A DNA stretch of 64,000 bases from an uncultured Candidatus Saccharibacteria bacterium (lineage in GTDB: Bacteria > Patescibacteriota > Saccharimonadia > Saccharimonadales > EFPC-124): assembly GCA_964405095.1 (NCBI GenBank), contig CAYOML010000003.1, forward strand, positions 11,072 through 75,071. Reading direction: 5' to 3'. The first letter of the stretch is position 1; every line of letters begins with the position of its first letter. This document shows positions 353-52,934 of the stretch, one piece after another. The notes beneath the pieces are model-generated. The model saw only the letters and a list, made by a program, of their open reading frames with translations. It made no database searches and was not told the origin of the DNA. The translations under genes were made by a program, and so were the position numbers.

Positions 353-1381
353 TCACATCGACAAACTGGGTACAACTTCCAGAGTGTAAGGGTCGCTCGA
401 GGTTTGGTTTGTGGCGCGGTAGTAAGCCAGGCTGGCAATCATGGAGGCATTGTCGGTACAGAGGTTAATCGGTGGGTAGTCAATCGCGATGGGCAGCCGA
501 GCTTTGAGTTGGCCGCGCAATTCCTGGCTGGCCGCCACGCCACCGGCGATAACCACCGAGGCAGGGGAGTAGTCGTTGTAGGCGACAAGTGTTTTGTCGA
601 CTAGCGTCTCGGTTGCAATATGCGCGAAGCTAGCAGCAATATCGTTGCGCTGAGACGCGCTCAGAAGCTCGGCAAGCTGCGTTGAGGGAAAATCATGCGG
701 CTTATTGCATATTGCTTGTGCTTGGCGCAAAACAGCGGTTTTGAGCCCGCTAAAGCTAAAGTCATATTTACCGGACATGCGGGCCTTGGGGAAGGCGAAT
801 GCTTTAGGGTTGCCATCCTTGGCTGCTTTTTCGATGCTTGGTCCGCCAGGGTAGGGGAGACCGATGACTTTAGCGACTTTATCGAAGGCTTCGCCTACAG
901 CATCGTCTTGGGTTTGGCCCAGTAGTGTATAGTCGCCATGATCTTTAAATAGCACTAGTTGGCTGTGGCCGCCGCTGACTATTAGGGCCAACATCGGGAA
1001 CGCCGGGGTATTTTCCAACAAAAAGTTGGCGTAAACGTGGGCTTCGACGTGATGGATGGCGTATAGCGGTTTGCGCTTAACGACGGCCAACGTTCGGGCG
1101 GTTAAAGACCCGATAAGCAGTGAACCAATCAAACCCGGTGCGTAGGTAACACCAATAGCGTCGATGTTGTCCCAGGTAACTTTGGCGTCGAGCAAGGCCT
1201 TGTCGACAACTGGCAACATAACCTCGATATGGCTGCGCGCGGCCACCTCTGGCACTACGCCGCCAAACGCAATGTGGATGTCAATCTGGCTCTGCACGAC
1301 GTTACTTAAAATCTGTCGGCCGTCTTTAACGACCGCCGCTGCAGTTTCATCACAACTGGTTTCGATTCCGAGGATAATCAT
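353..1381 (-). CDS. tsaD: tRNA N6-adenosine threonylcarbamoyltransferase TsaD (Kae1/Gcp family)
   Basis: 342 aa. N-terminus MIILGIETSCDETAAAVV; HHVEAH metal site; full-length family architecture. Confidence 0.93.
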   Translation of the reverse strand: MIILGIETSCDETAAAVVKDGRQILSNVVQSQIDIHIAFGGVVPEVAARSHIEVMLPVVDKALLDAKVTWDNIDAIGVTYAPGLIGSLLIGSLTARTLAVVKRKPLYAIHHVEAHVYANFLLENTPAFPMLALIVSGGHSQLVLFKDHGDYTLLGQTQDDAVGEAFDKVAKVIGLPYPGGPSIEKAAKDGNPKAFAFPKARMSGKYDFSFSGLKTAVLRQAQAICNKPHDFPSTQLAELLSASQRNDIAASFAHIATETLVDKTLVAYNDYSPASVVIAGGVAASQELRGQLKARLPIAIDYPPINLCTDNASMIASLAYYRATNQTSSDPYTLEVVPSLSM

Positions 1382-1615: not shown

Positions 1616-2908
1616 ATGCAACAGGTAAAGTTGTTTGTTAAGAAGTTATTACCAAGTAGTGTTCGGCAACCAGTCATAAACCTATATCATCTGTTGGTGG
1701 CGGTGGCCGCCAATCTGCGTTACGGTTTTCCAGCGCGATCGGCGCGCGTGGTTATGGTCACTGGTACTAACGGCAAGACGACGACAGCAGCAATGATCTC
1801 CCAGATTCTCATCACTACTGGTCACAAGGTTGGAACTATCACAACCGCTTACTACACATATGGCACCGACGACAAAGAAATCAACACTTCTAATCGCACC
1901 ATCGACGATATTTTTAAACTCCAGGCTATGCTAGCCAAGATGAAACAGGCTGGCTGTGAGTATGTTGTAATGGAAGCAACATCACAGGCGCTTGACCAAA
2001 ATCGCCTGTGGGGAATCCCCTGCGACGTGGCGGTGATGACTAATCTGACCCAAGACCATCTCGACTACCACGCTACCATGGAGCGTTACGCGGCAGCCAA
2101 GGGCAAATTGTTTGTCAAACAGCCCAAGCTCATTGTGTTGAATCGCGACGACGCCTGGTTTGAATTCTTCAATAAGTTTGAGGCCGGGGAGCGCAAAGTG
2201 ACTTACGGCGCGCATGAAGGCGCCACCTGCCAGATAGCCGACGTCGAGCTGCACAAGGATGGCAGCGATGTGACACTGAAGATCGAGAACGAGCATGAGT
2301 TCAAGTTTCGAACCCGTTTACCTGGCCGTTTTAATGTTTATAACGCCACGGCTGCGGTGACCGTCGGTTATTACCTGATGCTCGAGCCTGAACAAATCTC
2401 GGCTGGCATCGAAGCCTTGGCCAGTGTACCAGGCCGCTTGGAGCGCATTGATGCTGGGCAAAAGTTTGAGGTAATCGTTGACTATGCTCACACGCCCGAC
2501 GCCCTGCAAAACCTGCTCGATACTCTCCAGCATCTCACCAAAAACAGATTATGGTTGGTATTTGGTGCCACTGGCAATCGCGACAAGGGGAAACGTCCAG
2601 TGATGGGCGAGATCGCCGCCAGGCTGGCCGATAAAATTGTGCTGACCGACGAAGAGCCATATGACGAAAACCCGGCAATTATTAGGCAAGAAGTTCGCGA
2701 GGGGATTATGAAGGCTGGTGCCGAGGATAAACTGCAGGAAGTTGGCGACCGCTATGAGGCGATTACGACCGCGATTAAGGCTGCCCGGCCGGGTGATACG
2801 GTGGTGATTACTGGTATGGGACACGAACAGTTTAGGATTGTAGCTGGCGAACGTCTGCCTTGGAGTGATGCACAGGTGGCGAGAGAGGTTTTGGCAGGTG
2901 GGAAATAG
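1616..2908 (+). CDS. murE: Mur ligase, MurE-like (UDP-MurNAc-L-Ala-D-Glu : diamino acid ligase)
   Basis: 430 aa. P-loop VTGTNGKTTT; MEATSQAL; DYAHTPDAL; GATGNRDKGKRP. These match the MurE family central and C-terminal domains. Confidence 0.85.
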   Translation: MQQVKLFVKKLLPSSVRQPVINLYHLLVAVAANLRYGFPARSARVVMVTGTNGKTTTAAMISQILITTGHKVGTITTAYYTYGTDDKEINTSNRTIDDIFKLQAMLAKMKQAGCEYVVMEATSQALDQNRLWGIPCDVAVMTNLTQDHLDYHATMERYAAAKGKLFVKQPKLIVLNRDDAWFEFFNKFEAGERKVTYGAHEGATCQIADVELHKDGSDVTLKIENEHEFKFRTRLPGRFNVYNATAAVTVGYYLMLEPEQISAGIEALASVPGRLERIDAGQKFEVIVDYAHTPDALQNLLDTLQHLTKNRLWLVFGATGNRDKGKRPVMGEIAARLADKIVLTDEEPYDENPAIIRQEVREGIMKAGAEDKLQEVGDRYEAITTAIKAARPGDTVVITGMGHEQFRIVAGERLPWSDAQVAREVLAGGK

Positions 2909-2940
2909 TCTTTGCCCATACCGCTGGTCCAACATCTTTA

Positions 2941-3058
2941 TTATCTCAGGCCGCCGCCATCGACAAAAGTCGATGCTCGGCATGCGGGAAGTATAGCCTT
3001 CGCTAACCAAGGGTGTTTAGATGCAGCTGACGTAAGTTTCATAGCACTCATTAACAAG
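2941..3058 (+). repeat. family A element, copy A1 (left arm missing)
   Basis: Core ctcaggccgccgccatcgacaaaagtcgatgctcggcatgcgggaagtatagccttcg. The right flank gctaaccaagggtgtttagatgcagctgacgtaagttt is homologous to 9388..9425. Confidence 0.85.
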
Positions 3059-3113
3059 TAGCCACGGGTAGTTAATCGGCTCGCGGGACTGGCAGACGGG
3101 TCTATCCATGTTC

Positions 3114-3121
3114 TGTAGAAT
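3114..3121 (+). promoter_or_regulatory. -10 box (tgTAGAAT) 6 nt upstream of the ATG at 3128; apparent leaderless promoter
   Basis: TAGAAT-agaacc-ATG, with no SD. Confidence 0.4.
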
Positions 3122-3127
3122 AGAACC

Positions 3128-4366
3128 ATGAGGGCAACACGTAGGTTGAAGCAAGTGGCTAAGGCGCATGTGGCAGCGGCGAGCAGCGGTTGGCCGGCAC
3201 GGCAGCTGGAGGTCGTGCTGATTGTCGGACAGGACGGCACCCAACTCAGCGTGTCGCTGTTAGGTGCCATCTTGGCAGCCAGTGGCCGACGGGCGGGCAT
3301 TATCACCCAAACCTATGTCGAGATTGCCGGTGAACGAGTCAACGGCAGTGATCAAGCCGACATCTTAAGCGACCCTTTTCGACTACAACGCTTACTAGCC
3401 CAGATGAAACACGCCGAGTGCAGCCACGTCATTATTGAGGTTCCGCCGACCATACCTGAACATAGTTTTGTTAGTCTGCACCCGGCCTTGCTGGCCATTC
3501 GCCGTTGCGGTGACAACCGGTTGGCGGGTGTCGATAACGTCCAGCGTGTCGCCCAGATCCGTCGGTTATTGGCGCTCAGCCCGCGAGCGGTGGTTTGCAA
3601 CCGTGACGACCCGGCATTTGATCAACTGAAAGATAGTTTGCGTAGCGGTTCTGGACTGATGACCTTCGGTACTCACGAGCGTGCCGAGTGCCGCATTCGC
3701 GGTGTTACGTTGCACTCAGCGGGCAGCGAGGTGAAGTTGGTTATCGATCACCATACAGAGTTGCAGCTCGGCTCATATTTAAGCGGTAAACAGGCAGTCT
3801 ACGACATGGTAACTGCCGCTGCGGCCGCCTATCTGCTGCACGTACCAATTACGGCTATCGAAGACGGCATCGCCACCTTCAAAATCCAGACTAGCCACCT
3901 GCAGCTTATCCAAACAGACCGGCCTTATCAGATGGTGATCGATGACGCGGTGACGCCCGAAGGCCTGGCCGAAAACCTCGAAACTTTGGTGCATTTTGCC
4001 AAAAACCGCGTGCTGGCAGTAATCGGCGCCAATTTGGCCCAGCCCGAGGCTTGGCGGCCGGTGATTGGCGAAGTGATCGCCGAGGCCGCTGACAGAATTG
4101 TGGTAACCGATGGTGATTATGCTGCGCATGAAAGCCCACAGCTAGTACGCCAGCATCTGCTGCAGGGAATTGTCGCGGCTGGTGCCGATGCTCGCTGCGA
4201 GGAAGTAGCCGATCGCCAGACGGCCATTGGCCGGGCGATGAGTATTGCCCGCCGAGGCGATATCGTGGCTATTCTTTGCAGCCCAAAACGGCCTTACCGC
4301 CAGCTAGGCTCGGAACGTGAGACTTGGGACGACCAGGCAGTTATTGATAGTTTGTTGCAGCAATAG
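3128..4366 (+). CDS. Mur ligase family paralog with degenerate catalytic motifs (probable pseudoenzyme)
   Basis: 412 aa and collinear with the upstream MurE. The P-loop is GQDGTQLS instead of GTNGKTT, IEVPP replaces MEATS, DDAVTPEGL replaces DYAHTPDAL, and GANLAQPEAWRP replaces GATGNRDKGKRP. Confidence 0.75.
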   Translation: MRATRRLKQVAKAHVAAASSGWPARQLEVVLIVGQDGTQLSVSLLGAILAASGRRAGIITQTYVEIAGERVNGSDQADILSDPFRLQRLLAQMKHAECSHVIIEVPPTIPEHSFVSLHPALLAIRRCGDNRLAGVDNVQRVAQIRRLLALSPRAVVCNRDDPAFDQLKDSLRSGSGLMTFGTHERAECRIRGVTLHSAGSEVKLVIDHHTELQLGSYLSGKQAVYDMVTAAAAAYLLHVPITAIEDGIATFKIQTSHLQLIQTDRPYQMVIDDAVTPEGLAENLETLVHFAKNRVLAVIGANLAQPEAWRPVIGEVIAEAADRIVVTDGDYAAHESPQLVRQHLLQGIVAAGADARCEEVADRQTAIGRAMSIARRGDIVAILCSPKRPYRQLGSERETWDDQAVIDSLLQQ

Positions 4367-4373
4367 GGTTTTG

Positions 4374-4409
4374 GCACCTCCGTGCCACTGGTGAGCAGCA
4401 CGGAGGTGC
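4374..4409. terminator. 12-bp GC hairpin between convergent genes (putative terminator, no clear U-tract)
   Basis: gcacctccgtgc-(12 nt)-gcacggaggtgc, between the murE paralog stop (4366) and the small ORF stop (4411). Confidence 0.3.
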
Positions 4410-4410
4410 A

Positions 4411-4521
4411 TCAACGCTGGTTCTTTCGGCGTCTTTGTGGCTTGATGGCGTCCCAAAATGTGGCCAGCACGGCAACTGTCATAACCACGACAATGATCGC
4501 ACCGCCCAAGAGGTCGGACAT
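4411..4521 (-). CDS. small hydrophobic peptide (36 aa), hypothetical
   Basis: MSDLLGGAIIVVVMTVAVLATFWDAIKPQRRRKNQR. A GAGGAGG Shine-Dalgarno lies 5-6 nt upstream of this internal ATG of ORF 4411..4593. One TM helix plus a basic tail. Confidence 0.4.
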   Translation of the reverse strand: MSDLLGGAIIVVVMTVAVLATFWDAIKPQRRRKNQR

Positions 4522-4598
4522 CGGCCACCTCCTCTCGACATGATCGTCCAGCGTAGTGATAACTATAAAACTATTACAGATTAAGGCAATCACTTGCG

Positions 4599-4713
4599 TC
4601 TAAACCACCCTTACCTATTACTTCTACGGCACATTCCGCGCGGGGCAGCCTTTGGCTGCTCCGGCTGCACTCGGCATCCAGACCGTAGAAGTAATAGGTA
4701 AGGGTGGTTTAGA
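4599..4713 (+). repeat. family B element, copy B1
   Basis: 31-bp perfect arms (tctaaaccacccttacctattacttctacgg / ccgtagaagtaataggtaagggtggtttaga) around a 53-nt core, cacattccgcgcggggcagcctttggctgctccggctgcactcggcatccaga. The core is near-identical to the reverse complement of 26933..26989. Confidence 0.85.
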
Positions 4714-5683
4714 ACTTGAGGATTGTGTAAGCGCTGCGATACACAGCGTAGAACAGCCGATTCACCGGCAATTCCCAAGTACCAAGATATGGCTTGTAGT
4801 CTCCACCGAATGATTGCTTGAACTTGGTGAACCCGGCCCAACGGTGGGTCGGCGGCGCATCGGCCGGAGCAACGCCAACAAAATCAAAGGCAGTTTGCCC
4901 CTTCTTTTTAGCGTCTAACATCATTTGGACTACTAGTGGCGAACCGGGGTGCAGTTTGCGGGCCTCAAAATCGGCGGCGGCGTGTGCGTAGTAGCGGGTT
5001 GTGGGGCTGTCAAAACAAAAGGCGGTGGCCACGGCTTTAGCTTCGAACTCGGCAACGTAAAGAGTGGCCGCGCCGCGGGATAATAAGATGTCGGCCATGG
5101 TTTGGTAATAGTGGTCGGTGTGCTGCAAGATACCGTTGTGCCGGGCAACGTCGCGCATTAGCTTGATAAACAGCGGCATGTCGGTTGGTTGGCGACTATC
5201 GCGCAGTTTAAGGCCCTTGTTTTGATAATTGCGGTAGAGATTGCGGTTGGTATCGGTCAGCTCGTTAAGCAACTCATCTTCTGATTTTTGCAAGTTTTGG
5301 GCCCAACTTAAACGCGGCTGGATATCTTTGAGAGCCGGTTTCAGGCCTAAGCTGAACAGATCGGTACCCTGCAGATGCACAATTGGCTCAAGGCGCACAA
5401 AGACCGCTTTTTGCTGGCGGGCTAACTGTTTTAGAGCCGCCAAAGCTTCACTAAAAGCTGCTTTGTCTTTGACAATCGGGCCGTACGGGCAATAGAGCCG
5501 CGTTGCTACCCTCGATACTTCCAAAATCGCTAACACCTGCCAGCCGGTCCCGCTGGCATAAAAGATTTTGTTGCCCAGTGCTGCCTGAAATGCTGCCCAG
5601 TGGCTGCTCTGCAAAAAGTGTCCACTGGCGCTAAAGAGCGTATCATCCCATTTCTTATCGGGTAGGCCGGCTGTCCATTGCAT
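4709..5683 (-). CDS. FemAB-family peptidoglycan interpeptide-bridge aminoacyltransferase
   Basis: 324 aa. FLQSSHWAAFQ near the N-terminus and the C-terminal GFTKFKQSFGG block are typical of the FemX/FemAB family. Confidence 0.8.
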   Translation of the reverse strand: MQWTAGLPDKKWDDTLFSASGHFLQSSHWAAFQAALGNKIFYASGTGWQVLAILEVSRVATRLYCPYGPIVKDKAAFSEALAALKQLARQQKAVFVRLEPIVHLQGTDLFSLGLKPALKDIQPRLSWAQNLQKSEDELLNELTDTNRNLYRNYQNKGLKLRDSRQPTDMPLFIKLMRDVARHNGILQHTDHYYQTMADILLSRGAATLYVAEFEAKAVATAFCFDSPTTRYYAHAAADFEARKLHPGSPLVVQMMLDAKKKGQTAFDFVGVAPADAPPTHRWAGFTKFKQSFGGDYKPYLGTWELPVNRLFYAVYRSAYTILKF

Positions 5684-6164: not shown

Positions 6165-6371
6165 CGTAACACCTCACTCTCGGACGATGGTGACTTAGGA
6201 TTATCTACAAGCAAATAGCCCTAAACCACCATCGTCACTTTTGCCAACGTACCTACCTCTCGGTGAGAAGCAATATCTAAACTATAAAATATTGTGGTTA
6301 ATACATCAAGTATCTCTATGATGCGGTATAATGTGTGTAACCTATCAAACACTTGAGGAGGGTTACTCATT

Positions 6372-9306: not shown

Positions 9307-9443
9307 CTGCAATTAAGCACCCTTAGTTATCTCAGGCGGCCAACATCGACAAAAGTCGATGCTTGGCATGCGGGAAGCATAGCCTTTGCTAACTAAGGGT
9401 GTTTAATTGCAGCTGACGTAAGTTTGTGGCACTCGTTGCCAAG
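9307..9443 (+). repeat. family A element, copy A2 (complete)
   Basis: 23-nt arms ctgcaattaagcacccttagtta / taactaagggtgtttaattgcag (one G-T pair) enclose a 60-nt core. The right flank is shared with A1. Confidence 0.85.
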
Positions 9444-9495
9444 CGACCTAAACTCAGCTTCATTTGCAAACGGGTACTTCCTAAATACAGCGCTA

Positions 9496-9594
9496 GCCGC
9501 GAGTGGCGCGAAGGAAGGGGTGCCCCAGTCGCGCGCAGCCAGTACCCTGGCGAGCACGTCTGGGGAAGGAAGCCTAAGCGACGAGGCTCGCGGT
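9496..9594 (+). repeat. family D element, copy D1
   Basis: Closing stem GCCGCGAG/CTCGCGGT. Internal pairings CCCCAG/CTGGGG and GCCAG-tacc-CTGGC. Blocks ggggtgcccc..gcgcgcagcc..ggcgagca..ggggaaggaa..ctaagcgacgagg are shared with 42002..42143. Confidence 0.8.
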
Positions 9595-9689
9595 ATGGCA
9601 GACTAGAGGGTGTGCTGCTGTATGTACTGCCGCAGGCAGTTCATGGGCTCGCGGGGTTGCAAGGGGGAGCGAAATTCAGAGCAAATGAA

Positions 9690-11707: not shown

Positions 11708-11753
11708 AGCACAATATTAAAAGACCTCGCACGAGGTCTTTTAATATTGTGCT
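11708..11753 (+). terminator. intrinsic terminator-like hairpin after groEL
   Basis: ~21-bp inverted repeat agcacaatattaaaagacctcg / cgaggtcttttaatattgtgct, followed by tatt. Confidence 0.6.
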
Positions 11754-15182: not shown

Positions 15183-16964
15183 ATGTGTGGAATATTTGGC
15201 TATATTGGTCATAAAAACACGGCCAGCGAAGTTGTTATTGAAGGGCTCAAGCGCCTAGACTATCGCGGTTACGACTCATGGGGAGTCGGGCTGGTAGCAA
15301 ACGACAAAATAGTCGTTGAAAAAGAAGCTGGTAAAATTACTGATGTTAAAGTCATGGCAAAGATGCCAAAAGGCAGTTGTGCGCTGGCACACACCCGTTG
15401 GGCAACCACCGGCGCAGTTACTCAGGTTAATGCTCATCCGCATTTAAGTAGTGATAAATCGTTTGCTTTGGTGCAGAACGGCATTGTCGAGAATTTCGAA
15501 GAGCTAAAGAAAGTTATGCTCAAAAAAAGTTATACCTTTAAGAGCGAGACCGATACCGAGGTCATTGTTCGCTTGGTCGAAGAAGCACTAAAGACTAAGG
15601 CAAACTTTGTCGAAGCCTTAAGAATGGCCTTTTTGCAGTTGCATGGTCGCAACACTGTAGCTGCTGTCACGAACAAAGGCGAGATTTTCGCTGCCCGCAA
15701 CGGTTCACCACTGGTAGTTGGGCTAAATTCTAAGACTAAAGAAGTCTTTCTGTCTTCGGATGTGCTGTCATTCGCGCCGCTAGCCGACAAAATGATAGTC
15801 GTCGACAACAATCAGATGGTCACCATCGGTAAAACGGGTGCGGTTAAGCTGTTTGACGCCCAAACCGGCAAGCCATCGAGCTACAAATTAGAGGACGTGA
15901 CCATTAAGGCCACTAAAATCGACAAAGAAGACTACGACCACTTTATGGCTAAGGAAATCCACGAAACGCCGTACACTGTCCGCCAGATTGTAATCCAAAG
16001 CCAAGCCAAGCTCGACCAGTTAGCCCAAGCAATCAAAACTGCCAAACACGTTTATGTAATCGGCTCGGGCACGGCCGGTGTTGCCGCAACCCAGATCGCC
16101 TTTTATCTGCGCATTTATGGCAATGTCAACGCTACCAGCCTGGTTGGCGCCGACTCCCGTAGCTATTACGATATTTTCCAAAGCGGCGATCTGATGATCG
16201 CTCCGTCACAAAGCGGCGAAACCGCCGATGTGATTGAAGTGCTCGAATACGCCAAGACCAAAGGCGTTAAAATCGCCTCGATCGTTAATATGCCTGGATC
16301 GATGATTAGCCGCATGTCGGATTACCCGTTCATGTGCAATGCCGGACCAGAAATTTGTGTTATGTCAACGAAAATCTTCAGCTCGCAAATCGCCTGGGGT
16401 TATCTGCTAGCCAAAGCCGTGCAAGGTAAATATCAAGTGGGGAAACAAAACCTGGAGCAAGCTGCCGAGGCCGTTCAAGCCTACCTAGATGACCATGCCA
16501 ATCACAATGCGATTAGTAAGTTGGCCGACATGCTGGCCAGCAAACAACACATTTTTTTGCTTGGCAAATACCAGGACTTAGCGGTGATTAACGAGGGCAT
16601 GGTCAAACTAATTGAGGCCACTTACCACCATGCTCACGCCGTCCCGGCCGGCGACCTCAAACACTACGCCATCACTTTGATGGAAGAGGGTGTGCCAGTG
16701 ATCGCCGTTGTCTCCAACGACATTGTTAAAGCCGATATAATGACCTCCATAAACGAAGTGCGCCTACGCGGGGCGGAGGTGATCGCCGTGGCTCATGAAA
16801 ATCATGACAACTACGATTACTTGTTACCAACTGCCGATACCGGCGAAACCGACGCTATAAGCAATGTAGTTCCTTTGCAGTTGCTGGCCTACTACATGGC
16901 TGTAAAACTTGGTAACAACGTCGACAAACCCCGCAATATTGCAAAGAGTGTGACCGTTAAGTAG
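15183..16964 (+). CDS. glmS: glutamine--fructose-6-phosphate aminotransferase
   Basis: 593 aa. N-terminal MCGIFGY nucleophile, two SIS domains, and a C-terminal KSVTVK-type end. Confidence 0.95.
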   Translation: MCGIFGYIGHKNTASEVVIEGLKRLDYRGYDSWGVGLVANDKIVVEKEAGKITDVKVMAKMPKGSCALAHTRWATTGAVTQVNAHPHLSSDKSFALVQNGIVENFEELKKVMLKKSYTFKSETDTEVIVRLVEEALKTKANFVEALRMAFLQLHGRNTVAAVTNKGEIFAARNGSPLVVGLNSKTKEVFLSSDVLSFAPLADKMIVVDNNQMVTIGKTGAVKLFDAQTGKPSSYKLEDVTIKATKIDKEDYDHFMAKEIHETPYTVRQIVIQSQAKLDQLAQAIKTAKHVYVIGSGTAGVAATQIAFYLRIYGNVNATSLVGADSRSYYDIFQSGDLMIAPSQSGETADVIEVLEYAKTKGVKIASIVNMPGSMISRMSDYPFMCNAGPEICVMSTKIFSSQIAWGYLLAKAVQGKYQVGKQNLEQAAEAVQAYLDDHANHNAISKLADMLASKQHIFLLGKYQDLAVINEGMVKLIEATYHHAHAVPAGDLKHYAITLMEEGVPVIAVVSNDIVKADIMTSINEVRLRGAEVIAVAHENHDNYDYLLPTADTGETDAISNVVPLQLLAYYMAVKLGNNVDKPRNIAKSVTVK

Positions 16965-26167: not shown

Positions 26168-26894
26168 AGGCACACTTTCTACTGCCGTTCGAGTTCTGCA
26201 GCAACTGCGCCATGACCATCGAACATTAGCCTTGCTTTGGCTGGTACCAACTTTGCTGCTTTTCTTGCTCCGATATGTGTTCGACAAACAAGATATGGTA
26301 TTCAACGCCGTCGGACCTTCGTTAATTGCTCTGTTTCCGTTTCTGACGATGTTCCTGGTTACCTCGGTAGCCACACAACGAGAGAGATCTGATGGTACTC
26401 TGGAGCGCTTGTTGCGTTTGCCACTAAGCAAGGCTGGTTATGTGTTTGGCTATGCTATAGCTTTTAGCCTTATGGCCATTATTCAGGCGGCCATCGTCAC
26501 CACGGTGAGTTTTAATTGGCTTGGCTTAAGCATCGACGGTTCTGCCTGGCTACTATTTGTGATGACACTGCTAGTGGCGGTGTTGGGTGTGTCGTTGGGT
26601 CTTGCTGCGAGCGCCCTAGCCAAAACCGAATTTCAGGCTGTGCAGTTTATGCCGCTAGTAGTTATGCCACAGTTTTTACTTTGCGGTTTGTTGGTGGCCC
26701 GCGATCAAATGGCCGAGGTGTTAAGAGTAATCTCAGATTATCTGCCGTTGTCTTATGTGGTTGAGGGACTTAGAGAGTTGCAGCATCATACTGATGTTAC
26801 GCAGACATTTATAAATGATATATTGTTGTTGTTAATTTTTGTGGCAGGTGCACTTTTACTGGGTGCGCTGACATTACGTCGCAGAACTTCATAG
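26160..26894 (+). CDS. ABC-2 type transporter permease
   Basis: 244 aa with six predicted TM segments. Overlaps the upstream ATPase. Confidence 0.8.
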   Translation: MFKGTLSTAVRVLQQLRHDHRTLALLWLVPTLLLFLLRYVFDKQDMVFNAVGPSLIALFPFLTMFLVTSVATQRERSDGTLERLLRLPLSKAGYVFGYAIAFSLMAIIQAAIVTTVSFNWLGLSIDGSAWLLFVMTLLVAVLGVSLGLAASALAKTEFQAVQFMPLVVMPQFLLCGLLVARDQMAEVLRVISDYLPLSYVVEGLRELQHHTDVTQTFINDILLLLIFVAGALLLGALTLRRRTS

Positions 26895-26897
26895 CGA

Positions 26898-27024
26898 TTG
26901 ACTGAACCACCCCCAGCTTATTACCGCAACGGTCTGGATGCCGAGTGCAGCCGGAGCAGCCCATCAAGGGCTGCCCCGTGCGGAATGTGCCGTTGAAGTA
27001 ATAAGCTGGGGGTGGTTCAGTCAA
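26898..27024 (-). repeat. family B element, copy B2 (inverted relative to B1)
   Basis: 35-bp arms (ttgactgaaccacccccagcttattaccgcaacgg / ccgttgaagtaataagctgggggtggttcagtcaa, two non-Watson-Crick positions). The 57-nt core is the reverse complement of the B1 core, apart from one substitution and a longer hairpin tip. Confidence 0.85.
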
Positions 27025-27055
27025 CACATGTAGGCTTCCCACCAATTTTATTACC

Positions 27056-27064
27056 TGATATACT
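27056..27064 (+). promoter_or_regulatory. extended -10 (TGaTATACT) 8 nt upstream of the pyrG ATG
   Basis: TGaTATACT-aaacctac-ATG, with no SD. Confidence 0.45.
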
Positions 27065-27072
27065 AAACCTAC

Positions 27073-37905: not shown

Positions 37906-38949
37906 GTGGCACGAACTAAAACAGCAACCACCACACCACCGGCGGATGATCTTGACGAGTCGGCAGAAGCCGATGACGATACAACTTCTCTAGACGGCGA
38001 CCTACCAACTGACGATGCGACAACTACTGATGATGCCGTCGAACCAAATCCCGACGAATTCGAAGAAGAGGAAGAGTGGAAAGAAGACGAGGCTGTAGCC
38101 TCGAGCTACTTAGATGACATTTCTGACGACTCGGTGCGTTTGTACCTGCGCGAAATTGGCAAAATTCCGCTTTTGACGCCTGTCGAAGAATTGGCGCTGG
38201 CTCAGCGCGTCCGCCAAGGTGACAAAGACGCCAAAGATAAGATGGCCGAGGCCAACATGCGTTTAGTAGTGAGTATCGCCAAGCGTTACAGTGGTCGCGG
38301 CTTGGATTTTTTGGATCTGATCCAGGAAGGTAACACCGGTCTGCTACGCGCTGTCGAAAAATTTGATCCCGACAAGGGCTTTAAATTCAGTACCTACGCG
38401 ACCTGGTGGATCCGTCAGGCCATTACCCGTGCGATTGCCGACCAAGCCCGTACCATCCGTATTCCGGTGCACATGGTAGAAACCATCAACAAGCTGCTGC
38501 GCACCCAGCGCCGCATGACGCAGGAGCTCAACCGCGAGCCGTCAATCGAAGAACTGGCGGCCGAAATGGAGATGGAACCAGAGAAGATCGAATACGTCAT
38601 GAAGATCAAACAGGACATTACCTCGCTTGACGCAAATGTGCGCGATGATGATGACGACTCGGTGCTCGGCGATTTTATCGAGGACGAAGAAGCCCAAAGC
38701 CCTGAAGAATCGGCCGCTATTCAGCTTTTGAAGGAGCAAGTTAAAGAAATGCTCAGCGTTCTGACTGAACGCGAGCAAAAAATCCTGAAAATGCGCTTTG
38801 GTCTGGAAGACGGCAAAAGCCACACGCTCGAGGAAGTTGGCCAGGAATTTAGTGTAACCCGCGAGCGCATTCGACAGATTGAAGCCAAAGCACTTAGCAA
38901 ACTGCGCAAGCACAAAGACGCTAAGAAACTTTACGAATACTTGCAGTAA
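37906..38949 (+). CDS. rpoD: RNA polymerase sigma factor, sigma-70 primary type
   Basis: 347 aa with a GTG start after AGGAGG. Acidic N-terminus; region 2 [31 protein letters not shown]; region 4 [18 protein letters not shown]. Confidence 0.92.
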
Positions 38950-39597: not shown

Positions 39598-40884
39598 GTG
39601 AGTGAACATATTGAGGTGGCTGGTACCATTGCAAATACGGTGGGCGATACTTCGTCACCCGAAACAGCCGGTGATGAACTTGCTATGCGCAGAAAAGCCC
39701 GTAAACGTGGCGGGCCGGCGGTTAAAGCCCGGGTCGCCAGAGCACCTCGAAAGACTACAGGGAAAAAAGCTGGCGAGCGCGCACTTTTGAGCGTTGTCGG
39801 GGGTGAAGAAGGGTTGAGCCTGGATGAGATTCTAGCAGAAGTTGACGAATTTGGGTTTGATGCAGACGAACCTGAAGACAATGTACTAGACAGGCTAGGG
39901 GCTAGCAGTGATGAAGAGGGTGAAGACTTGTCGGACTTGGCCGATCTGGATGACGAAAGAGCCGATGCCTCGGTTACTGACCCTGTGCGCGCCTACATTA
40001 TCCGGGCCGGTAGGGTATCACTACTGGATGCTGCTCAAGAAGTTGACTTATCCAAGCGCATAGAAGCTGGCTTGTATGCGACAGAACTTTTACGTAGTTT
40101 TAATGAAGACGGCATTCCGCTTAACGGTTATACAGTCAAGGAACTTGAGTTTGTAGCTAAAGATGGCAGCCGCGCCAAAGATCACATGCTGGAAGCCAAC
40201 CTACGCCTTGTTATGAGTATTGCTAAACGTTACGTTCGCCACGGCGCGCATATGCAATTTTTGGATCTCATCCAAGAAGGTAACATTGGTATGGTTCGTG
40301 CTGTAGAAAAATTTAATTACAAACGGGGCTACAAGTTCAGCACGTACGCCACCTGGTGGATCCGCCAGGCTATCACTCGGGCGATTGGCGACCAGGCCCG
40401 TACTATTCGCATTCCGTTACATATGGTTGAGAATCTCAATCGGATGAGTACCGTTCAACGCGCTCTAACACATAGTCTTGGGCATGAACCAAGTGATCTC
40501 GAACTGGCCGAAGCATTAGATATAGATGAGAAGACCTTGGCAAAATGGCTCTCTTATGAGCGAGAGCCCGTCTCGCTTGACACGCCAGTGGGGGATGACA
40601 AAGAAAGCAGTCTCGGCAATTTTGTTAGCGATGATGATGCCGTTGACCCAGAAGAAGCTGCGGGGTATCAGCTGCAGGCTGCACAAATAGCAGAAGCACT
40701 TAATATTTTAACCGGCAGAGAACAGCTAGTGATGCGTTATCGCCTTGGGTTTTACGGTCGAGAGTATAGCCTCCAAGAGATTGCCCAGGAACTTGAGCTG
40801 AGTCGCGAGCGCATTCGTCAGATAGAGACAAAGGCTAAGGATAAACTTAGAGACTCGCCCCTTCTCGCCTCGTTTAGAAGCTAG
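39598..40884 (+). CDS. second sigma-70 family sigma factor (primary-like, regions 1.2-4 present)
   Basis: 428 aa. DPVRAYI (region 1.2); [42 protein letters not shown]; region 4 [18 protein letters not shown]. The GTG start is uncertain. Confidence 0.85.
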
Positions 40885-40918: not shown

Positions 40919-43618
40919 ATGAGCAAACGCCTGGTTATTATAGATGGCAAAAGCGTATTTTACCGTGGCTACTATGCTATGCCCAGTTTAAGTACCAAAG
41001 ACGGCACACCCACTGGCGGGGTTTATGGTTTTGCAGTCATGGCACTAGAAGTAGTGAAGAAGTTAAAGCCGGATTATGTTTGCGTGGCGTGGGACAAACG
41101 CCACACCAATATTCGCTCCCGCGTGGCGTTATATCCTCAGTACAAAGCCAATCGCAAGCCGGCACCGCCAGATTTTTATGAGCAAATCCCGATTTTGTAC
41201 GACTTGTTGCATGCCTTAGGTTGGCCACTTTACGAAGCCGACGACTACGAAGCCGACGACCTAATGGGTGCCTTTGCCAAGCAAGCCGGCGAAAAGGACA
41301 TAGAAAGTTACCTTGTAACTAGCGACCTAGACGTTTTACAGCTCGTAAACCCACATACCCACATTTACACCCTTAAAAAAGGCCTCAGCCACATAGAACT
41401 ATTCAATGTGGCTAGCTTTGAAGAAAAATACGGCGTCAGTGCTCACCAATGGGTGGATGTTAAAGCGCTGAAAGGTGATTCGTCCGACAATATTCCAGGC
41501 GTAGCCGGCGTCGGCGAAAAAACCGCTTTGGAGCTCATAAAACAATATGGTTCGCTCGACGGAGTTTACGAAAACATCGAACTTATTAAAAACACTCTCA
41601 AAGATAAACTCGTCAAAGATAAAGACATGGCCTACCTAAGTAAAAAACTTGTCACCCTGATGGTAGACGCACCCATAAAAATTGACCTCGCACACGCCAA
41701 ACTCCACGACGGTGTCACCCCTGAATTTGTGGCCATATTACGCAAACTCGAATTCCGTAACCTTCTTCGCCAGGCCGAAGCCGGCATGACCAAATCCGAA
41801 CTAGAAGCCGCTGAAGAACACATCGAAGAGCACGAAATGCCCGAAATCAAAAAGAAAAAATTCGACCAAGCCGACTACAAACCCACCCAAACCCGCGTAA
41901 TAGCCCTCAGCCCCGACAGCAGTACACTATGGGTCAGCCCAATTCAAGGCTACTATAGTATATTGCCGTTAACTGAGAGCACTGGTTCTACGTCAGCCGG
42001 GGGTGACCCGGAGGGAGGGGCGCCCCGGTCACGCGCAGCCGTACTCGGCGAGCATGTCCGGGGAGGGAAACCTGAGGGGCAGGACCCGCGGGGTGGTCTG
42101 CACAACAATGAAGGCGGTCTAAGCGACGAGGCACGTGGTCACCTTGAAACGGTAATGAACGGTCCTCTCATCGGCCACGACCTCAAAAGTATCTTCAGAT
42201 ATCTGCTCGGCCTTGGCGTAAAAACCGAACCCAAAGTCGAACACGACACCCGCATCGCCGCCTTCATCCTAAATTCATTGGAACGCTCCCGCGAACTCGG
42301 CGACCTCCGCGGCCGTACCCTCGACATGGCCAACCCCGCTGAAGTTCTCCCATCCACCTGGGAAGCTTACAAAGACCAAAAACTCCAATTCGATCAACTC
42401 CCCAAACTTCAAATGCTTGCCACCGACATGGACTTCCCCAGCATCTACCTTCTCGCCAAAATGGAGCACCGCGGTATTCGCCTCGACAGCACATATCTTA
42501 ACAACATGGGCAAAAAATTCGAGGTCCAATTAAAAGAATTTGAACAAAAAATTTACGAACTGGCTGGGCAAGAATTTAACATTGCCTCGCCAACCCAGCT
42601 TGGTGAAATCTTGTACGTAAAACTCGGCTTGCCAACCGGCGGCGTCAAAAAAGGCAAAACCGGCTATTCTACTGGCGCCAAAGAGTTAGAGAAATTAAAG
42701 CCGTTGCATCCACTGCCAGCGCTGGTTTTGCAGTACCGCGAATACGCTAAACTCAAAAGCACCTACATCGACACCCTCCCAAAACTTGTCGATGCCCAAG
42801 GCAAATTGCATACCACCTACGATCTGGACGTTGCCGCAACTGGCCGTCTCAGCAGTCGCGACCCTAACCTGCAAAACATCCCTACCCGTACCGAAATTGG
42901 TCAAGCCATCCGCACAGCCTTTCTGCCGGGTCCAGGTAACGTGTTTGTAAGCGCTGACTACAACCAGTTTGAGTTGCGTCTTTCGGCCGTGATGGCCGAG
43001 GATAAAGAGCTAATCGAAAGCTTTAACAAACACGAAGACGTCCACACCAAAACTGCCGCCCAGTTATATGGCATTCCTACCGCCACTGTCACTAAAGAAC
43101 AGCGCCGTCATGCCAAAACCGTCAATTTTGGGATTTTGTATGGCATGAGCCCACATGGCTTGCAAGCCGCGACCGGCATGAGTTTTGCCGAAGCGCGGGA
43201 TTTTATCAAAAAGTATTTTGAGCTGCGAGCGCCGATCCGCGACTACATCGACAATATAGTTAAAAAAGCCCTACACGACGGCTATGTAGAAACCATCTTT
43301 GGCCGTCGTCGTCCAACCCCAGACTTAAAAAGCAGCAACTTCGCCGTCCGCGAAGCCGCCAAACGCGCCGCCATGAACATGCCAATCCAGGGAACCGAAG
43401 CCGATATTATGAAGTTGGCAATGCTGGCGGTGGAAGAAAAGTTGAGTGGGCTAGGCGAGCAGCTGCTGCAAATCCACGACAGCATTTTAGTAGAATGCCC
43501 CGAGGCAAACGCCGAAAAAGTCAGCAAAATCTTAAAAGAAACCATGGAATCTATCCACCCTCTGCCGGTCGAGCTAAAAGTCGACGTCAGCACTGGAAAA
43601 AACTGGGGTGCACTCTAG
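40919..43618 (+). CDS. polA: DNA polymerase I
   Basis: ~899 aa. 5' nuclease (LVIIDGKSVFYRGYYA, SDNIPGVAGVGEKTA); pol motifs DYNQFELRL (A), RRHAKTVNFGILYG (B) and QIHDSILVE (C). Contains the family D repeat at 42002..42143 in-frame. Confidence 0.95.
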   Translation: MSKRLVIIDGKSVFYRGYYAMPSLSTKDGTPTGGVYGFAVMALEVVKKLKPDYVCVAWDKRHTNIRSRVALYPQYKANRKPAPPDFYEQIPILYDLLHALGWPLYEADDYEADDLMGAFAKQAGEKDIESYLVTSDLDVLQLVNPHTHIYTLKKGLSHIELFNVASFEEKYGVSAHQWVDVKALKGDSSDNIPGVAGVGEKTALELIKQYGSLDGVYENIELIKNTLKDKLVKDKDMAYLSKKLVTLMVDAPIKIDLAHAKLHDGVTPEFVAILRKLEFRNLLRQAEAGMTKSELEAAEEHIEEHEMPEIKKKKFDQADYKPTQTRVIALSPDSSTLWVSPIQGYYSILPLTESTGSTSAGGDPEGGAPRSRAAVLGEHVRGGKPEGQDPRGGLHNNEGGLSDEARGHLETVMNGPLIGHDLKSIFRYLLGLGVKTEPKVEHDTRIAAFILNSLERSRELGDLRGRTLDMANPAEVLPSTWEAYKDQKLQFDQLPKLQMLATDMDFPSIYLLAKMEHRGIRLDSTYLNNMGKKFEVQLKEFEQKIYELAGQEFNIASPTQLGEILYVKLGLPTGGVKKGKTGYSTGAKELEKLKPLHPLPALVLQYREYAKLKSTYIDTLPKLVDAQGKLHTTYDLDVAATGRLSSRDPNLQNIPTRTEIGQAIRTAFLPGPGNVFVSADYNQFELRLSAVMAEDKELIESFNKHEDVHTKTAAQLYGIPTATVTKEQRRHAKTVNFGILYGMSPHGLQAATGMSFAEARDFIKKYFELRAPIRDYIDNIVKKALHDGYVETIFGRRRPTPDLKSSNFAVREAAKRAAMNMPIQGTEADIMKLAMLAVEEKLSGLGEQLLQIHDSILVECPEANAEKVSKILKETMESIHPLPVELKVDVSTGKNWGAL
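42002..42143 (+). repeat. family D element, copy D2, inside the polA reading frame
   Basis: Closing stem GGTGACC/GGTCACC. CCCCGG/CCGGGG and GCCG-tact-CGGC. The core is homologous to 9496..9594, with an extra ~47-nt insert. Confidence 0.8.
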
Positions 43619-52828: not shown

Positions 52829-52934
52829 CCGAAACGAGACATAAGCGATTGTCTCAGGCCGCCGACATCGACAAAAGTCGATGCTCGGCATGCGGGAAGC
52901 ATAGCCTTCGTCAATCACTTATGTCTCGTTTCGG
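52829..52934 (+). repeat. family A element, copy A3 (complete)
   Basis: 23-nt arms ccgaaacgagacataagcgattg / caatcacttatgtctcgtttcgg (one C-A mismatch) enclose a 60-nt core that is near-identical to A1 and A2. Confidence 0.85.

Follow-up and report, generated by a model that had tools for sequence, protein, structure and literature searches.

A probable MITE-like palindromic element at the 3' end of a fem gene in a Saccharimonadales genome

The question raised by this locus is how a gene of peptidoglycan synthesis came to end inside a long and perfect palindrome. In the window (the whole stretch of 64,000 nucleotides analysed here), fem encodes a FemAB-family peptidoglycan bridge transferase (4709–5683, minus strand; Pfam FemAB, E = 4e-31), and its stop codon (4709–4711, TAA on the minus strand) together with two of the three bases of its last codon lies within the right arm of an inverted repeat of 115 bp, B1 (4599–4713). 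An earlier note, made from the letters of this DNA, had described perfect 31-bp arms around a 53-nt core and had placed the end of fem in the right arm, and both descriptions are accurate: the left arm (4599–4629, TCTAAACCACCCTTACCTATTACTTCTACGG) is complementary to the right arm (4683–4713) at 31 of 31 positions, with the core at 4630–4682 enclosed between them. The answer that we favor, and consider probable, is that B1 is a copy of a lineage-specific, non-coding, non-autonomous MITE-like palindromic element of 115–127 bp with terminal inverted repeats (TIRs) of 31–35 bp, mobilised in trans. On this reading the family is new, while the element is of an ordinary kind in an unusual host.

As an RNA, B1 is predicted to fold with −77.4 kcal/mol and a z-score of −12.2 against shuffled sequences, which is far above chance, and the opposite strand folds almost equally well, the B1-plus orientation being slightly better (by 2–6 kcal/mol). 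The predicted fold of the core consists of hairpin 1 (12 bp with one bulge and a TTT loop) followed directly by hairpin 2 (3 bp with a 5-nt loop), and these two together with the outer stem make a predicted three-way junction. The core also contains GCAGCC followed by two copies of GGCTGC, from which two mutually exclusive hairpins had been proposed. The alternative pairing, of GCAGCC with the second GGCTGC, does exist and is longer than the earlier note gave, but the two folds are unequal: the alternative reaches −18.9 kcal/mol against −24.0 kcal/mol for the main fold in B1, and −19.1 against −29.1 kcal/mol in the second copy, B2, a cost of approximately 5 and 10 kcal/mol, respectively. Neither copy has coding capacity, with stop codons in the arms and no ORF common to both, and the GC content of the element is 54–58% compared to 50% for the window.

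To see how fem acquired this end, it is useful to compare the window with locus L037 of a relative, whose Fem is about 69% identical. There the fem stop is followed by 52 nt and then by a homologue of the small ORF that also follows fem in the window, with no element between. When B1 is taken out, the window flanks are colinear with L037 across the fem end, a TATAGT box, the GAGAGGAGG ribosome-binding site (RBS) and the start of the ORF, and relative to this empty site the window carries exactly 7 extra nt. The 7-bp target sequence is present on both sides of B1, with a fem-side copy flush with the arm (4714–4720, ACTTGAG; CTCAAGT on the fem strand) and a distal copy (4592–4598, ACTTGCG; CGCAAGT on the fem strand), which are identical at six of seven positions and both align to the single CGCAAAG of L037. 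The 18 nt past B1 (4581–4598, minus strand; CGCAAGTGATTGCCTTAA) are a remnant of the pre-insertion fem 3' end and align with CGCAAAGCCTTGCGTTAG of L037, which reads R K A L R and stop. As judged from this alignment, B1 is shown to have inserted at the fem 3' end with a flush 7-bp target-site duplication, and it is by this insertion that the element came to supply the fem stop.

The sequence of events at the gene end can be outlined from the same comparison. A cut-and-paste or copy-in reaction placed B1 at the 3' end of fem and duplicated 7 bp of the target; the duplication copy beside fem, joined to the first bases of the element, now reads AAG TTC TAA, and the original fem end was displaced and survives downstream as non-coding DNA. 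The reading frame in the window is AAG T|TC TAA, in which the element contributes the last two bases of the final codon as well as the stop, and Fem ends in ..AYTILKF before the stop. In the element-free relatives, a comparison that the earlier note had suggested, the protein ends in ..AYK.RKALR or ..KKLLSK. In L008, whose Fem has 81% identity, the stops of fem and of a convergent Mur ligase gene are 2 nt apart, and neither the element nor the small ORF is found.

The small ORF (4411–4521, minus strand) encodes a hydrophobic protein of 36 aa (MSDLLGGAIIVVVMTVAVLATFWDAIKPQRRRKNQR) behind a GGAGG RBS, and is a native neighbor of fem that lies outside the element. Its promoter-like site, TTGCCT-16-TATAGT (4562–4589, minus strand), is situated 9 nt beyond B1, with the TTGCCT of the displaced fem end serving as the −35-like hexamer; the TATAGT and the GAGAGGAGG RBS are conserved in L037. 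The homologue in L037, P0362, is 70% identical, occupies the same place after fem, and is the only small homologue among 1.8 billion cluster representatives. We had considered the ORF as a possible part of B1, for example as a type I toxin cassette, and this is ruled out as L037 has the ORF without the element. The stop codon of the small ORF falls inside a hairpin at 4365–4418 that is shared with the convergent Mur ligase gene. Only 6 nt separate a TAGAAT box from the ATG of the Mur ligase gene at 3128 (3116–3130); the box is conserved in L008 (about 2886–2900, minus strand), and its presence in both genomes suggests that the mRNA may be leaderless.

The second copy, B2 (26898–27024, 127 bp), lies 22 kb away and is inverted relative to B1. 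Its arms of 35 nt (26898–26932 and 26990–27024) are 94% complementary and enclose 57 nt (26933–26989) that are the reverse complement of the B1 core, so the recurrence of the core in inverted form that had been reported is correct; relative to B1, the B2 core carries 2 substitutions and has 4 nt more in its apical loop. The covariation claimed for the arms also holds up: in the outer stems five pairs have changed on both sides (compensatory double changes), there is in addition a paired indel of G-C and a single G-U half change, and no pair is broken apart from B2's own C.U. Common to both copies are the arm terminus CTRAACCACCC and an inner TTATTAC..ACGG, while the outermost bases differ (TCTAAA.../...TTTAGA in B1 and TTGACT.../...AGTCAA in B2, with no TA dinucleotide at the termini). 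With paired changes counted once, approximately 8 events fall in approximately 33 positions of the arms and 2 substitutions in the 53 positions of the core, a roughly fivefold better conservation of the core. A G.T pair in the inner stem is present in both copies, as the earlier note had stated, and B2 adds one G.U and one C.U in its outer stem in the same orientation. The G.T does not, however, mark a functional strand: it is a single inherited site, the wobbles of two copies of another family (A2 and A3, described below) lie on opposite strands, and it fails as a marker because any transition that affects a single arm will appear as G.T when one strand is read and as A.C when the other is.

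Both copies sit between a stop codon and the next promoter-like site, which for the next same-direction gene is found 9–11 nt past the end of each copy. B2 begins 3 nt past the stop of an ABC-2 permease gene (26892–26894), and 11 nt separate its end from the −35-like hexamer of pyrG (27036). When read along the upstream gene the polarity of the two is identical (2/2), in agreement with the orientation given previously.

A stable hairpin at a gene end might be taken for an ordinary intrinsic terminator that evolved in place, and a perfect palindrome might also be an assembly artefact, as assemblers can create foldbacks. We regard either origin of B1 as hardly credible. Intrinsic terminators consist of a short GC-rich hairpin and a U-tract, but no U-tract follows B1 or B2 on either strand (at most 1–3 T in the 8 nt past the stem), and a terminator scan returned nothing at the two copies; a 31-bp stem around a conserved 53-nt core that is repeated 22 kb away, with insertion and target duplication at B1, is also not what a terminator evolved in place would look like. 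As to an artefact, the copies have diverged with compensatory changes, and an independent Logan assembly (SRR9179563) has a contig that reaches 30 nt into the B1 arm and breaks there, as is expected of a real inverted repeat.

The distribution of the element among relatives points in the same direction as the fem locus. None of the orthologous sites recovered (L008, L030, L031, L034, L036 and L037) carries B1 or B2. At the B2 site, L031 has a plain spacer of 65 nt between the ABC-2 permease gene and pyrG, L030 has an EamA gene there, L036 has a 108-aa ORF with a short hairpin, and in L034 a GGDEF-domain gene lies directly upstream of pyrG, all without B2. This spacer (26895–27072 in the window, compared to 1664–2612 in L030, 306–370 in L031 and 7473–7978 in L036) is a hotspot where gene content changes among close relatives. 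The B1/B2 covariation is real, yet in view of these absences it is no demonstration of a conserved RNA gene.

A covariance model built from B1 and B2, as the earlier note had proposed, was run over approximately 154 kb (the window and ten loci of this and related genomes) and recovered B1 and B2 only, and low-stringency blastn agrees, with no further copy. Searches of larger collections were also negative within their scope. The exact pattern CACATTCCGCN{20,40}CACTCGGCATCC gave 6 matches in the GTDB species genomes, all of them chance or coding and in unrelated phyla; the exact motif TGCACTCGGCATCCAGACC gave 20 matches in JGI metagenomes, none with flanking similarity; three scans of viral contigs (IMG/VR) for B and A core motifs gave 0 matches; and the only blastn match among phage and plasmid records was a chance one of 29 nt, in a virion protein gene of a Ralstonia phage. 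In Rfam 15 no model matches B at the gathering threshold, the sole match in the window being a tRNA, and even at E ≤ 10 nothing is added except generic long-hairpin miRNA models, which score far below threshold. The earlier note had named two findings that together would speak against its reading, namely 3'-end mapping to a generic terminator hairpin and the lack of conserved copies beyond these two; the second is what we find in the data searched.

Where the nearest homologues of the window proteins bear a source name, it is Candidatus Saccharimonadales. In Pfam scans that covered about 60 ORFs of the 64-kb window, none gave a match to a transposase, integrase or reverse transcriptase. The ORFs recognised are housekeeping only, including Mur ligases, Fem, PGM, GroES/EL, ABC transporters, PyrG, ArgS, DnaG, sigma factors, Pol I and PNPase. 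Two of these are paralogous sigma-70 genes (37906–38949 and 39598–40884) with one oppositely oriented gene between them, which share DNA stretches of 71–78% identity; L031 has three in a row.

A further family of long-stem elements in the window, family A, follows the same design as B, that is, an outer stem, a 12-bp hairpin and then a 4-bp hairpin with a GGGAA loop. Its members are A1 (2936–3039, plus strand), a partial copy with a degenerate left arm, A2 (9307–9412, plus strand) and A3 (52829–52934, plus strand), and all three are on the strand of the adjoining genes. A2 and A3 share 89% identity over the inner 64 nt, while their outer 21-bp stems match at only 8/21 and 10/21 positions, making them essentially unrelated in sequence and yet fully paired. 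Between these two copies, compensatory change affects 12 pairs of the outer stem and one of hairpin 1; each copy has a single wobble. The arm terminus of A2, TAAGCACCCTTA, resembles the B1 arm, whose outer end TCTAAACCACCCTT nearly equals the TCTAAA-CACCCTT of the A1/A2 arm (shuffle p 0.001–0.009, uncorrected for about 55 comparisons), and on the basis of this likeness families A and B may share a mobilising enzyme. An octamer, CTCGGCAT, is also found in both the A and B cores; it was considered as a link between the families and is treated as probably coincidental, as its structural roles differ. CTGRCGYAA occurs just past the right arm in all three family A copies.

Other hairpins and repeats of the window deserve mention in their own right. 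Family C consists of two related long hairpins (1397–1552 and 280–353) that flank tsaD (353–1381, minus strand) and have perfect outer arms of 23 bp and 15 bp with a common AAAAACTTG; the Logan contig L029 ends inside the larger of the two. In total, 5–7 long-stem elements are present in the 64-kb window, compared to 1 (a different element, in L008) in approximately 72 kb of relatives. For B2, A2, A3, C1 and C2 a search for target duplications gave only off-boundary matches of the kind expected by chance. A 22-bp imperfect hairpin at 6183–6236 carries in its arms CTAAACCACC, a 10-mer of the B1 arm terminus in inside-out polarity, which may have arisen by chance (about 0.1 expected) or may mark a junction where element ends meet. 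Between A2 and groES lies a GC-rich conserved intergenic motif, ..GCCGCGAGTGGCGCGAAGGAAGGGGTGCCCC..GGGGAAGGAAGCCTAAGCGACGAGGCTCGCGG..GGCTCGCGGGGTTG.. (9490–9670, plus strand), with shorter versions at 3060–3100 and 16047–16067 and part of it at 42040–42140; in L008 it is found at about 2930–3060 (minus strand), between a different hairpin and a Mur ligase gene. The motif has no Rfam match, and its fold z-score is only −1.2.

The near-identical 64-nt unit that A2 and A3 carry inside unrelated outer stems, both of 21 bp, brings up the idea that the mobile unit is the conserved inner module only, which would insert into the tips of pre-existing palindromes, the outer stems being host sequence. 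A candidate for such a palindrome lies immediately after groEL (11708–11753), where a perfect hairpin of 21 bp, closed by a 4-nt loop and with no clear U-tract, stands on its own, which means that long perfect gene-end hairpins occur in this genome without a repeat core. We nevertheless think it quite improbable that only the inner module moves, since at both empty sites of B1 the whole hairpin is missing, arms included, and the duplication is flush with the arm ends. The arms of B1 and B2 are also clearly homologous, and no solo palindrome is found in relatives at any orthologous site. For the A2 site, this comparison is affected by the synteny downstream of the PGM gene, which is broken in the nearest relative (L032).

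It is also important to consider that B might be primarily a structured RNA, either a multi-copy small RNA or a cis-acting 3'-UTR module, with copies that are kept by selection rather than being selfish and a three-way-junction core presented on a long helix of arbitrary sequence. We consider this unlikely. In its favor, the core is nearly invariant while the outer stem keeps its pairing through five compensatory pairs and a paired indel, and the pattern is stronger still in family A, with its 12 compensatory outer pairs, the additional one in hairpin 1 and the 89% identity of the inner 64 nt. The constant polarity relative to the upstream gene in the two B copies, the placement of all three A copies on the strand of the adjoining genes and the 2–6 kcal/mol advantage of the B1-plus orientation also speak for such an RNA. 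Set against this, the copies are absent at all of the relatives' orthologous sites and the target duplication means that at least B1 came by insertion. No antisense promoter-like site was seen pointing into B1 or B2, no terminator follows either copy, Rfam has no match, the wobble pairs disagree on strand across the families, and exact-motif scans of public genome, metagenome and viral collections yielded no copy. An RNA function of this type would be compatible with a MITE origin, through exaptation.

More doubtful is a reading in which families A and B together form an undescribed class of CPR element, a conserved three-way-junction module on a free-sequence helix of 21–35 bp that is itself selected. 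A 12-bp hairpin and a 3–4-bp hairpin would here be displayed on two to three turns of helix, and the arms would covary because the helix, and not a transposase-binding sequence, is under selection. One possibility would then be a processed small RNA, or an RNA that binds protein, which spreads in the manner of a mobile element; alternatively, the module could pass from one palindromic scaffold to another or insert into such scaffolds.

As a hairpin that follows directly on a stop codon with constant polarity, B might also be a site for a single-strand or site-specific recombinase, such as an integron attC-like site, a REP/RAYT repeat or an IS200/IS605-type end. AAC...GTT occurs near the outer ends, and ACTGAAC/GTTCAGT of B2 fits the RYYYAAC/GTTRRRY boxes at 6/7 positions. 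In B1, however, the boxes fit at only 5/7, and its stem is perfect, without the bulged, extrahelical bases that attC needs; the conserved center and variable arms are moreover the reverse of attC, and the neighbors are housekeeping genes with no cassette array or integrase. Neither Y1 HUH transposases nor integron recombination is known to leave a 7-bp target duplication. The REP reading is likewise at odds with an element of 115 nt without a terminal GTAG or CGTC tag (PMC3733652); the B termini are TCTA and TTGA, and the only CGTAG lies within the B1 arm, without conservation in B2. Taken as a recombinase site of any of these types, B seems to us very improbable.

REP sequences are intergenic palindromes of 20–40 bp with stems of 6–13 bp and a terminal GTAG or CGTC tag, which show complementary stem changes between subfamilies and an occasional G.T, and which have been proposed to protect mRNA 3' ends (PMC3733652). 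The mechanism proposed for their movement is of the single-strand HUH type and does not duplicate the target, in contrast to the untagged B elements of 115–127 bp and the 7-bp duplication at B1. Closer in size are the Correia/NEMIS elements, MITEs of Neisseria that are non-coding and approximately 100–155 bp long, with long TIRs and target-site duplication; they are often found just 3' of genes and co-transcribed, and the end-to-end hairpin is a proposed RNase III substrate that affects neighboring mRNAs (PMC2229807). B resembles them in size, long TIRs, target duplication and gene-end position without any sequence similarity. In Correia elements both the target and the termini are TA and the body is A+T-rich, whereas B1 has a 7-bp duplication and B has no TA ends and 54–58% GC. 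In Correia the TIRs are the conserved part, while in B it is the center that is conserved and the mid-arms that drift with compensation.

Two other groups share individual features with B. Rickettsia palindromic elements (RPE) are 105–146 bp long, form predicted long stem-loops, and can land in genes and alter the protein end (PMC2229807). B1 and RPE are thus both palindromic and both change a protein end, but their sequences are unrelated, B1 has no CGTC tag (PMC3733652), and RPE are in frame and translated through, whereas B1 ends the ORF after one added codon. The YPAL/RU-2 and ERIC repeats of enterobacteria are imperfect palindromes of 127–168 bp in transcribed intergenic regions, without TA termini and not A+T-rich, and YPAL shows target duplications of 3–26 bp as well as empty/filled polymorphism between close relatives (PMC2229807). 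The inverted repeats of YPAL are internal and those of B terminal (31–35 bp), and both the sequences and the host phylum are unrelated.

Returning to the MITE-like reading, B is shorter than 200 bp and without coding capacity, has TIRs, shows a target-site duplication relative to the empty site (for B1), and is dispersed in two copies 22 kb apart that are absent at the orthologous sites of relatives, all of which is expected of a MITE. It lacks the TA termini and A+T-rich body that are true of most families, although not of all. The reading is also weakened in that only two copies are known, the 64-kb window holds no transposase, and B2 has no recognisable duplication, so that B2 may be an old insertion or an insertion plus deletion. 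In addition, arms that diverge faster than the core while staying paired through compensation are the reverse of what simple TIR recognition would give. The likeliest account of the core conservation is a role of the core as a protein-binding or RNA module, one that spread or a tolerated function requires. Mobilisation in trans would depend on a transposase encoded elsewhere that recognises the arm termini CTRAACCACCC, which A1 and A2 nearly share.

What the element might do at the end of a transcript can also be outlined. Situated between the stop codon and the next promoter, the B copies would be co-transcribed with the upstream gene, and the resulting hairpin of approximately 115 nt, which should be very stable, could serve as a 3'-end barrier or a processing site rather than as a U-tract terminator. 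Exonucleases of the PNPase type, which would be blocked, or RNase III, which would cleave, are candidate partners. We infer this role at mRNA 3' ends from the position of the copies, the analogy to Correia and REP and the PNPase gene in the window; the fact that PNPase is encoded there makes a 3' hairpin barrier at least mechanistically meaningful.

CPR bacteria have small genomes, in which little selfish DNA is expected; we found no description in the literature of small mobile repeats in Saccharimonadales or other CPR. The fem locus provides a clean pair of filled and empty sites for a small mobile element in a CPR bacterium. The hairpin elements of the window also have practical consequences, as they break short-read assemblies (two Logan contigs end inside them) and mark positions where gene order differs among close relatives. 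The pattern of conserved core and free arms in families A and B is a feature that simple TIR recognition does not explain. At the fem locus itself, B1 has rewritten the end of a gene in an essential pathway, that of peptidoglycan cross-bridge synthesis, and the displaced end of that gene appears to have been reused as the −35 region of the next promoter.
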